The notes: generated from the sequence alone by a model not told the origin. DNA of 64,000 nucleotides from Escherichia coli (GCF_003334335.1 NZ_QOWQ01000027.1); one strand, 5' to 3'. Positions 62,764 to 63,263 are shown, counted from the first letter of the stretch. Program-made: numbers and translations.

Positions 62764-63237
62764 CTACGCACGTCCAACCAGGTGCTTCACACTCCTGTAC
62801 TTAAGACCGTTTTTACCAAGCCCCAGATACAGAAAGGTGTTCACCGTCTTCGTGTTTATCCCCATTTCACGGGCAAGATGGCAGGGCTTTGACTCCCGGT
62901 ACACGTATCCAAACATCACCACCATCTCGGACATCGTCAGTGGTCGCGCATACGTATTATGTACCCACTCACCATTCCGGATTTTCCTGTACGTCTCCAG
63001 GCGCCCCGTAACATCTTCCGCATCAATCTGAAGATAACGGCGCCCCTGAAACATGCAGCACATCAGCCTGCCAAGGAGGGCATCACAGATTATCACCCAT
63101 GACTCATCATGTGCCGGTACGCTCTTCCTGTTCTCTGGTGTAAAAAACTCCCTCGCCAGTATTATCCTGTACCCCTCAAGCATCTGCTGCAGGCCATACT
63201 CCAGATAACGGTTGCGGGTCGCCAGAATCACTTTCAT
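62764..63237 (-). CDS. Small LuxR-family transcriptional regulator (C-terminal HTH; GadE/DctR/EcpR-like size class), 157 aa from the SD-supported ATG
   Basis: ORF track 62764..63309; the upstream part of the track ORF overlaps a terminator, so start set at ATG 63237 with AGGTGA SD (alternative ATG at 63255); HTH-like LTMSEMVVMFGY...GINTKTVNTFLY. Confidence 0.65.
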   Translation of the reverse strand: MKVILATRNRYLEYGLQQMLEGYRIILAREFFTPENRKSVPAHDESWVIICDALLGRLMCCMFQGRRYLQIDAEDVTGRLETYRKIRNGEWVHNTYARPLTMSEMVVMFGYVYRESKPCHLAREMGINTKTVNTFLYLGLGKNGLKYRSVKHLVGRA

Positions 63238-63263
63238 CGCTGTCACCTGTTTCATGCTCACAT

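Follow-up and report, generated by a model that had tools for sequence, protein, structure and literature searches.

The gene orf-156E follows the adhesin gene eibE at the end of prophage P-EibE in a stretch of 64 000 nt of Escherichia coli DNA (NZ_QOWQ01000027.1; this whole stretch is called the window below). It is a real gene under selection, and it starts at position 63237. By sequence comparison its product is assigned to the family of TosE of uropathogenic E. coli (UPEC); the assignment of this previously deposited, uncharacterised ORF to the TosE family is what is new here. The gain is incremental, since the ORF has stood in the databases from 2000 on and belongs to a known kind. The reading we are inclined to accept, with some reserve, is that ORF-156E is a LuxR-type regulator with a pseudo-receiver domain, coupled to the adhesin gene by transcriptional read-through and acting in trans on motility or surface genes.

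The gene, its start codon and the terminator before it

A mechanical search for ORFs in the window extends the frame to 63309, which gives 181 aa (62764..63309, minus strand). The earlier note had placed the true start at the ATG at 63237, with the ATG at 63255 as a second option, just past a terminator. We aligned five diverged loci, with proteins 59–89% identical: ATG 63237 and the hairpin before it are both conserved, and a purine-rich block is kept at the Shine-Dalgarno position in all five. ATG 63309 is replaced by ATT in RM11911, and ATG 63255 is missing from the EibA and SW07163 loci, so that neither upstream ATG is conserved. The spacer between hairpin and ATG contains indels of 1, 3 and 4 nt; as indels in it are not restricted to multiples of three, the spacer must be non-coding. 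Start 63237 was also chosen by PGAP (WP_001536686.1) and in GenBank record AF151676.1. Coordinates of all features are given in Table 1.

Table 1. Features at the prophage end of the window
Feature	Position	Strand	Remarks
orf-156E CDS	62764..63237	-	157 aa plus stop; encodes TosE-family protein
Shine-Dalgarno sequence AGGTGA	63243..63248	-	5 nt 5′ of ATG 63237; read from sequence
Intrinsic terminator after eibE	63265..63300	-	Scan, fold, five-locus conservation, stem_loop in AF151676
eibE, 3′-end	63324..64000	-	Gene continues past the window end; translation ends ...GVNFEF
Unannotated 41-aa ORF	62585..62710	-	Directly 3′ of orf-156E; translation MEQKKIRCGRRKYTAGAMCFMLFVWLGGVVTFCVLAALIMQ
Hairpin	62561..62579	+	T-run on plus strand, A-run on the other side; scan
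YkgJ-family cysteine-cluster gene	62056..62406	+	Prophage end; PGAP
serT, tRNA-Ser(UGA)	61830..61917	+	ARAGORN, PGAP; chromosomal landmark at prophage end

Over its full 3455 nt, record AF151676.1 (prophage P-EibE, E. coli ECOR-9) matches the genome of the window with 100% identity; it annotates eibE, a stem_loop at 2458–2485 (window 63299–63272) and orf-156E at 2520–2993 (window 63237–62764). The encoded protein is likewise 100% identical to AAF63046.1; thus, orf-156E was already deposited in 2000, though only as an ORF to which no function was attached. No experiments on orf-156 were found in the searchable literature. Intact homologues, the same start in PGAP and GenBank, and purifying selection (pairwise dN/dS 0.04–0.33, with dS up to ∼2, among eight homologues) establish that the ORF is real, as had been claimed earlier. 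A blastn search showed matches to orf-156E at five places of NZ_CM142927.1, a genome identical to the window, and at up to seven places in other genomes; the five matches suggest that, as in ECOR-9, one strain can harbour several prophages of eib type.

The terminator was found by a consensus scan: its stem has 11 bp, 7 of which are G-C, and closes a loop of 8 nt (63300–63271), and a U-run follows at 63270–63265, TTTTTTCTC. Folded alone it has −20.4 kcal/mol (z −4.4), and none of 200 shuffles folded equally well; in the five loci the loop is variable and the hairpin is kept. The element sits within the mechanically extended ORF, upstream of the real start, and is separated from ATG 63237 by 33 nt.

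This distance bears on the origin of the transcript. A consensus promoter scan gave no match on the minus strand, either across the window or across the entire eibE region; as the eibE promoter itself was missed, the scan is uninformative on transcription of orf-156E. Still, a gap of 33 nt leaves a promoter no room, so transcription should originate upstream, most simply at the eibE promoter, with partial read-through of the terminator. We consider this the most likely source of the orf-156E transcript; its level would then be low and proportional to transcription of the adhesin gene. Read-through of a terminator of −20 kcal/mol is an assumption of the coupling model. A similar layout is seen in UPEC strain CFT073, where the gap between tosA and tosE (L011, 20816–20856) has a hairpin with a U-run directly 3′ of the tosA stop codon (−17.1 kcal/mol, z −4.5), mirroring the arrangement between eib and orf-156. 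In an RNA-seq experiment reads of tosE and tosF were too few for analysis, while reads of tosCBD were abundant (PMC5956150), which fits the picture of termination after the adhesin gene with low-level read-out beyond it.

Conserved position next to adhesin genes and its exceptions

A gene of a YadA-type adhesin was present ∼85 nt before the orf-156 homologue in all eight loci compared (eibE, eibA, SW07163, RM11911, IBS28, S1-KEN-04-A, phage GER2 and a 43%-identical member), with identities to ORF-156E of 43–100%; tblastn showed orf-156C and orf-156D in the same place of their records. The last of the eight, P0045 (43% identity), is on a non-prophage island of E. coli 1105 (L023, NZ_CP023388.1 153330–181803). 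A more distant member, P0049 (39% identity), follows a gene of an RTX protein (HemolysinCabind). The layout of adhesin gene, terminator and small regulator is therefore conserved from 100% down to ∼30% identity and with two unrelated types of adhesin.

The island of E. coli 1105 also has IbrA/IbrB-like genes, a tos-like type I secretion system and a 2284-aa RTX adhesin. IbrA-like genes (PAPS_reduct/DUF3440) occur near the RTX-linked P0049 as well (L013, L014).

Another branch of the family lacks the adhesin gene. An intact homologue of 180 aa, identical in three unrelated strains, namely in EPEC E2348/69 (NC_011601.1 1472557–1473099; L004 6001–6543), in an O103:H2 EHEC strain and in a Korean isolate (L016 and L018, 3501–4043), is located directly after tail-fibre genes; the type III effector genes nleA, nleG and espJ adjoin, and there is no adhesin gene. 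PGAP has at this place merely a 150-nt 'partial' pseudogene, though the reading frame is intact. The nucleotide-identity band of 60–80%, which holds this class, contains ∼146 of the 191 matching records; three records of this band were inspected.

The proposal that orf-156E is a dedicated adhesin regulator is, then, only partly supported: the synteny with YadA-type adhesins is strong, but intact copies in EPEC and EHEC have no adhesin gene next to them, and the function reported for the characterised relative is in motility.

Fold of ORF-156E and its relation to TosE

Databases of domain models had little to say about this protein. The HMM search for a GerE/LuxR HTH, which had been put forward as the check on the predicted C-terminal HTH, was negative: Pfam GerE (PF00196) matched neither the 181-aa nor the 157-aa protein, its best E-value among 23 close homologues was 0.1, and in a wider set including TosF two of nine proteins reached E ≤ 1e-3. 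There was no match to ORF-156E among NCBIfam models and none by Pfam Response_reg. In PHROGs the protein belongs to phrog_6585 and an N-terminal fragment to phrog_2014, both of unknown function; a word-indexed homologue search returned E. coli 'hypothetical proteins' only.

Structure and profile–profile comparison were more informative. An AlphaFold2 model computed with 23 homologues (pLDDT 85.3, pTM 0.78) has four beta-alpha units (residues 2–88) followed by four helices (102–153), i.e. a predicted receiver-like N-domain (∼1–90) and a divergent four-helix HTH of LuxR/GerE type (∼99–153) that is superposable on GerE or NarL-C. The top Foldseek matches in PDB were full-length NarL/FixJ regulators exclusively (StyR, LiaR, DesR, RcsB, FixJ, EvgA, VraR, VpsT and DosR; probability up to 0.99). 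The family profile had four sub-threshold matches in PDB, all four to LuxR HTH proteins in residues 94–149 (VqmA, E 0.076; GerE, 0.22). Direct alignment by hhalign gave 90% for RcsB (E 1.7e-6), the best match of the family among K-12 proteins, and 82% for EvgA, both in the C-terminal region. Thus the claim of a C-terminal LuxR-type HTH is supported by the model, by profile–profile scores and by transitive homology, though the domain is so divergent that Pfam and NCBIfam do not see it.

The N-terminal half had been described as devoid of a phospho-receiver signature. A working signature is indeed missing; the half is not featureless, however, being probably a shortened receiver-like fold that keeps one aspartate, D52. 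At low stringency hhalign of the family against EvgA plus RcsB (91%) placed T7/R8 opposite D7/D8 of EvgA and D52 opposite D52, the phospho-acceptor of EvgA; confidence in the N-terminal part of this alignment is low. The receiver-like domain is one beta-alpha unit shorter, its acidic pair is replaced by T7/R8, D52 is the only receiver residue left, at the acceptor position, and no conserved residue was found in the family for the Thr/Ser and Lys of the receiver signature. D52 is invariant in 23 homologues (46–89% identity) and is retained in TosE; in total 31 columns are invariant, T7, N9, N36, R37, G65 and R66 among them. One could speculate that these six residues line the former active-site pocket. 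No gene of a cognate histidine kinase is present near orf-156E, its neighbours being eibE, tail-fibre genes, the 41-aa ORF, the YkgJ-family gene and serT. With a degenerate receiver signature and an HTH of LuxR/GerE type, ORF-156E is, judged by its fold and its homology, a predicted DNA-binding regulator similar to NarL/FixJ proteins and independent of a kinase. It resembles RcsB, EvgA, NarL, DosR and VpsT in its two-domain build, with a probable receiver-like fold before the GerE-type four-helix HTH (hhalign 82–91%); it differs from them in its shorter receiver, in Thr-Arg for the acidic pair and in having no kinase gene nearby.

Among characterised proteins, TosE of UPEC CFT073 (c0364) is the nearest relative, with 30% identity over 152 aa by BLASTP (E 9e-30); the family profile aligned to TosE at 99.8% in hhalign. 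Foldseek against AFDB found E. coli proteins carrying the labels LuxR family or sigma-70 region 4, among them A0A0H2V4I0 of CFT073 (160 aa, 29% identity, TM 0.84). The tos operon of CFT073 has genes for a PapB-family regulator, TolC, an ABC transporter, HlyD and an RTX adhesin, then two HTH genes (160 and 169 aa); as this order matches the published tosRCBDAEF, the 160-aa gene is taken to be tosE. Similarity of TosF to ORF-156E is at the level of the HTH only, and no TosF-like gene was detected in the window by tblastn (E 0.62 elsewhere). An exhaustive profile search among 1.84 billion proteins found 37 representatives at E ≤ 1e-3, the named sources being all E. coli or Salmonella; a family so tiny makes transfer of annotation from this search impossible. 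ORF-156E thus joins a small family, restricted to E. coli and Salmonella, with TosE as its sole named member.

TosE and ORF-156E are of similar size (160 and 157 aa), both retain the Asp of the IxCD motif, and both genes stand directly 3′ of a gene for a non-fimbrial adhesin, with a hairpin and U-run between. The adhesin next to tosE is a type-I-secreted RTX protein, whereas that next to orf-156E is a trimeric autotransporter; tosE is on a pathogenicity island and orf-156E on a prophage; tosE is followed by tosF, a canonical LuxR gene, and orf-156E by a gene for a 41-aa membrane peptide. TosE together with TosF suppresses motility (PMC5956150, PMC7545054), and both are listed among regulators of fliC (PMC10392849), while orf-156 is known from sequence. 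The paralogues ORF-156A, -156C and -156D of ECOR-9 prophages P-EibA, P-EibC and P-EibD (AF151091, AF151674, AF151675; 68–69% identity) have the same place after eibA, eibC and eibD with their stem-loops and were also deposited without function.

Other small regulators resemble ORF-156E in general build only. The likeness to EcpR (MatA), GadE and DctR of K-12, drawn earlier, does not hold as kinship: EcpR (hhalign 0.6%) and GadE (0.8%) align by the HTH only and were rejected as relatives, DctR is a weak relative (48%, E 2e-4, full-length alignment), and the actual relative is TosE. What the three have in common with ORF-156E is small size, an N-domain that is not phosphorylated and an HTH of LuxR type at the C-terminus; EcpR is, in addition, encoded beside the operon of an adhesin (pilus). 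AutA and AutR, encoded next to UpaB, were considered as possible identities of the AFDB 'LuxR family' entries and rejected: they are HyxA and HyxR, of 253 and 264 aa. These LuxR/GerE-type proteins are also encoded beside the gene of an autotransporter adhesin (UpaB/HyxB), and they bind its promoter as well as acting globally (PMC4844996); they are larger, separately transcribed and were never recovered as relatives in our searches.

Possible targets and modes of action

We favour action in trans since copies without adhesin genes survive and since the recognition helix hardly varies from KTVNTFLY, with or without an adjoining adhesin. By analogy with TosE and TosF, ORF-156E would probably act on flagellar motility or on genes of other surface structures, its likeliest targets, possibly through sites similar to RcsAB boxes and possibly together with RcsB; a cell would then cease swimming while making the adhesin. 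Feedback on eib itself may exist as a secondary effect. TosE reportedly acts with TosF, a counterpart of which was not detected in the window by tblastn; with identity to TosE at 30%, ORF-156E may have other targets. Against action in trans, the strict synteny with adhesin genes and a box-like element upstream of these genes fit a role in cis equally well.

This element is a block 138–155 nt before the ATG, shared by the upstream regions of seven diverged eib-type genes (e.g. TAAGACAAATCCTA in EibE, TAAGAAAAATCCTA in IBS28 and TAAGGAAATTCCGA in EibA). In six of the seven it agrees at 11–12 of 14 positions with TaAGaatatTCctA, the RcsAB-box consensus; EibE and IBS28 carry a second such site. 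The two sites of eibE (L001, 15013–15026 and 14969–14982) are ∼870–925 nt beyond the end of the window. The box in the flhDC leader of K-12, TAGGAAAAATCTTA, is identical to the eib boxes at 11–12 of 14 positions. Dinucleotide shuffles reach at least 11/14 in 6–14% of trials per region, which places the element weakly above chance and makes it suggestive only; the 64-kb window has a single match at this threshold. A search of window positions 62400–64000, of the regulatory region of tos and of the sequences before the adhesin-less copies found no box with at least 11/14 matches. The eib element would fit binding of ORF-156 to both targets, a mechanism with RcsB as partner, or RcsB alone.

The element and the synteny are what could be said for a dedicated cis regulator: ORF-156E would bind upstream of eibE and activate or repress it, in an autoregulatory loop. 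Sites of this type are bound by FixJ/NarL-LuxR dimers, and the adhesin gene precedes the homologue, at the same distance, in every one of the eight loci. We regard such a regulator as possible but doubtful, and as less likely than an adhesin-coupled regulator acting in trans. Homologues that have no adhesin gene beside them have stayed intact, and a box match would arise by chance with a frequency of 0.06–0.14 per region. Activation of eib in ECOR-9 was reportedly attributed to the IbrAB island by Sandt, Hopper and Hill in 2002. An eibG deletion mutant regains chain-like adherence from a plasmid that carries eibG with just 168 bp of upstream sequence and lacks the downstream ORF (bioRxiv 10.64898/2025.12.25.695649), and work on EibG regulation names conditions and no local regulator (PMC4352079). 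For TosE, the relative that has been characterised, the link is to motility, with tosA itself regulated by TosR, H-NS and Lrp (PMC5956150).

A broader version of the trans-acting reading, which we put forward tentatively, would see ORF-156 and TosE as a distinct class of regulators, hard-wired by leaky terminators behind genes of non-fimbrial adhesins: the dose of regulator would report transcription of the adhesin gene and switch host behaviour via boxes of RcsAB type. The pocket around D52 (T7, N9, N36, R37, G65 and R66) might, in such a class, sense a ligand rather than phosphate.

The auxiliary partners of RcsB include RcsA, BglJ, GadE, MatA/EcpR and DctR. ORF-156E might be one more: with no activity of its own, it would form heterodimers with RcsB and redirect it to RcsAB-type boxes, including those of flhDC and upstream of eib. 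Its build is that of the known partners, which are small proteins with a FixJ/NarL-type HTH and cannot be phosphorylated; RcsB is the best K-12 match and DctR a weak, full-length one, and the box-like sites of eib genes and of the flhDC leader agree with the proposal. Still, the receiver-like domain is without one beta-alpha unit, and its dimerisation face may not be intact; we think a partnership of this kind unlikely.

That orf-156E is a functionless passenger, a decaying remnant travelling with the adhesin moron, is very improbable: Stx phages often carry truncated or broken-up copies (fragments only in Stx2 phages such as VT2-Sakai, with 59% coverage in two pieces; the N-terminal-only phrog_2014) and PGAP calls the EPEC copies pseudogenes, but the latter are intact reading frames, dN/dS and the 31 invariant columns indicate selection, 175 of 190 genomes have copies with a coverage of 80% or more, and conservation in the family reaches as far as TosE.

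In Shiga-toxin-producing E. coli without LEE, Eib/Cla adhesins bind immunoglobulin and are responsible for serum resistance and for adherence in chains. Static growth, oxygen and temperature influence how strongly they are expressed, and no local regulator has been named (PMC4352079); the conserved downstream gene of TosE type is a concrete candidate regulator for eib systems. Homology to TosE links prophage-borne Eib with uropathogenic TosA, two systems previously studied apart. The intact, unannotated copies in effector prophages of EPEC and EHEC would be new candidates for prophage control of host behaviour. Should the broader, tentative version of the trans-acting reading be true, the prophage copies would represent lysogenic conversion, the phage deciding whether its host sticks or swims, and the adhesin-less copies of EPEC and EHEC would be overlooked virulence regulators.

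The remaining features of the prophage end

The adhesin gene eibE codes for an immunoglobulin-binding trimeric autotransporter adhesin with a YadA-type membrane anchor; it is 100% identical to eibE of AF151676, and PGAP names the product a YadA-like protein of 487 aa. In a complete genome 100% identical to the window, the end of this lambdoid prophage has the order J, lom, tail fibre, DUF4376 (tail-fibre assembly), YadA-like adhesin, orf-156E, YkgJ-family gene and serT. The window is E. coli chromosome, with hyaABCDEF at ∼55.9–61.4 kb on the minus strand, and the prophage ends within ∼140 nt of serT.

The peptide encoded by the 41-aa ORF has a basic N-terminus and a single hydrophobic helix; its homologue in prophage P-EibA is ORF-60A, in the C-terminal part of that protein. 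Annotated genes occupy this position in the loci of eibA (L003), phage GER2 (L008) and S1-KEN-04-A (L017); the ORF may be a third gene of the eib module. The hairpin at its end likely terminates convergent transcripts.

The YkgJ-family gene, located between serT and orf-156E, is separate from the regulator and travels with it. In IBS28, where orf-156 occupies another site of the chromosome, it is again flanked by the YkgJ-family gene, there a pseudogene (L007, 6765–7097), which indicates that the gene belongs to the mobile element.
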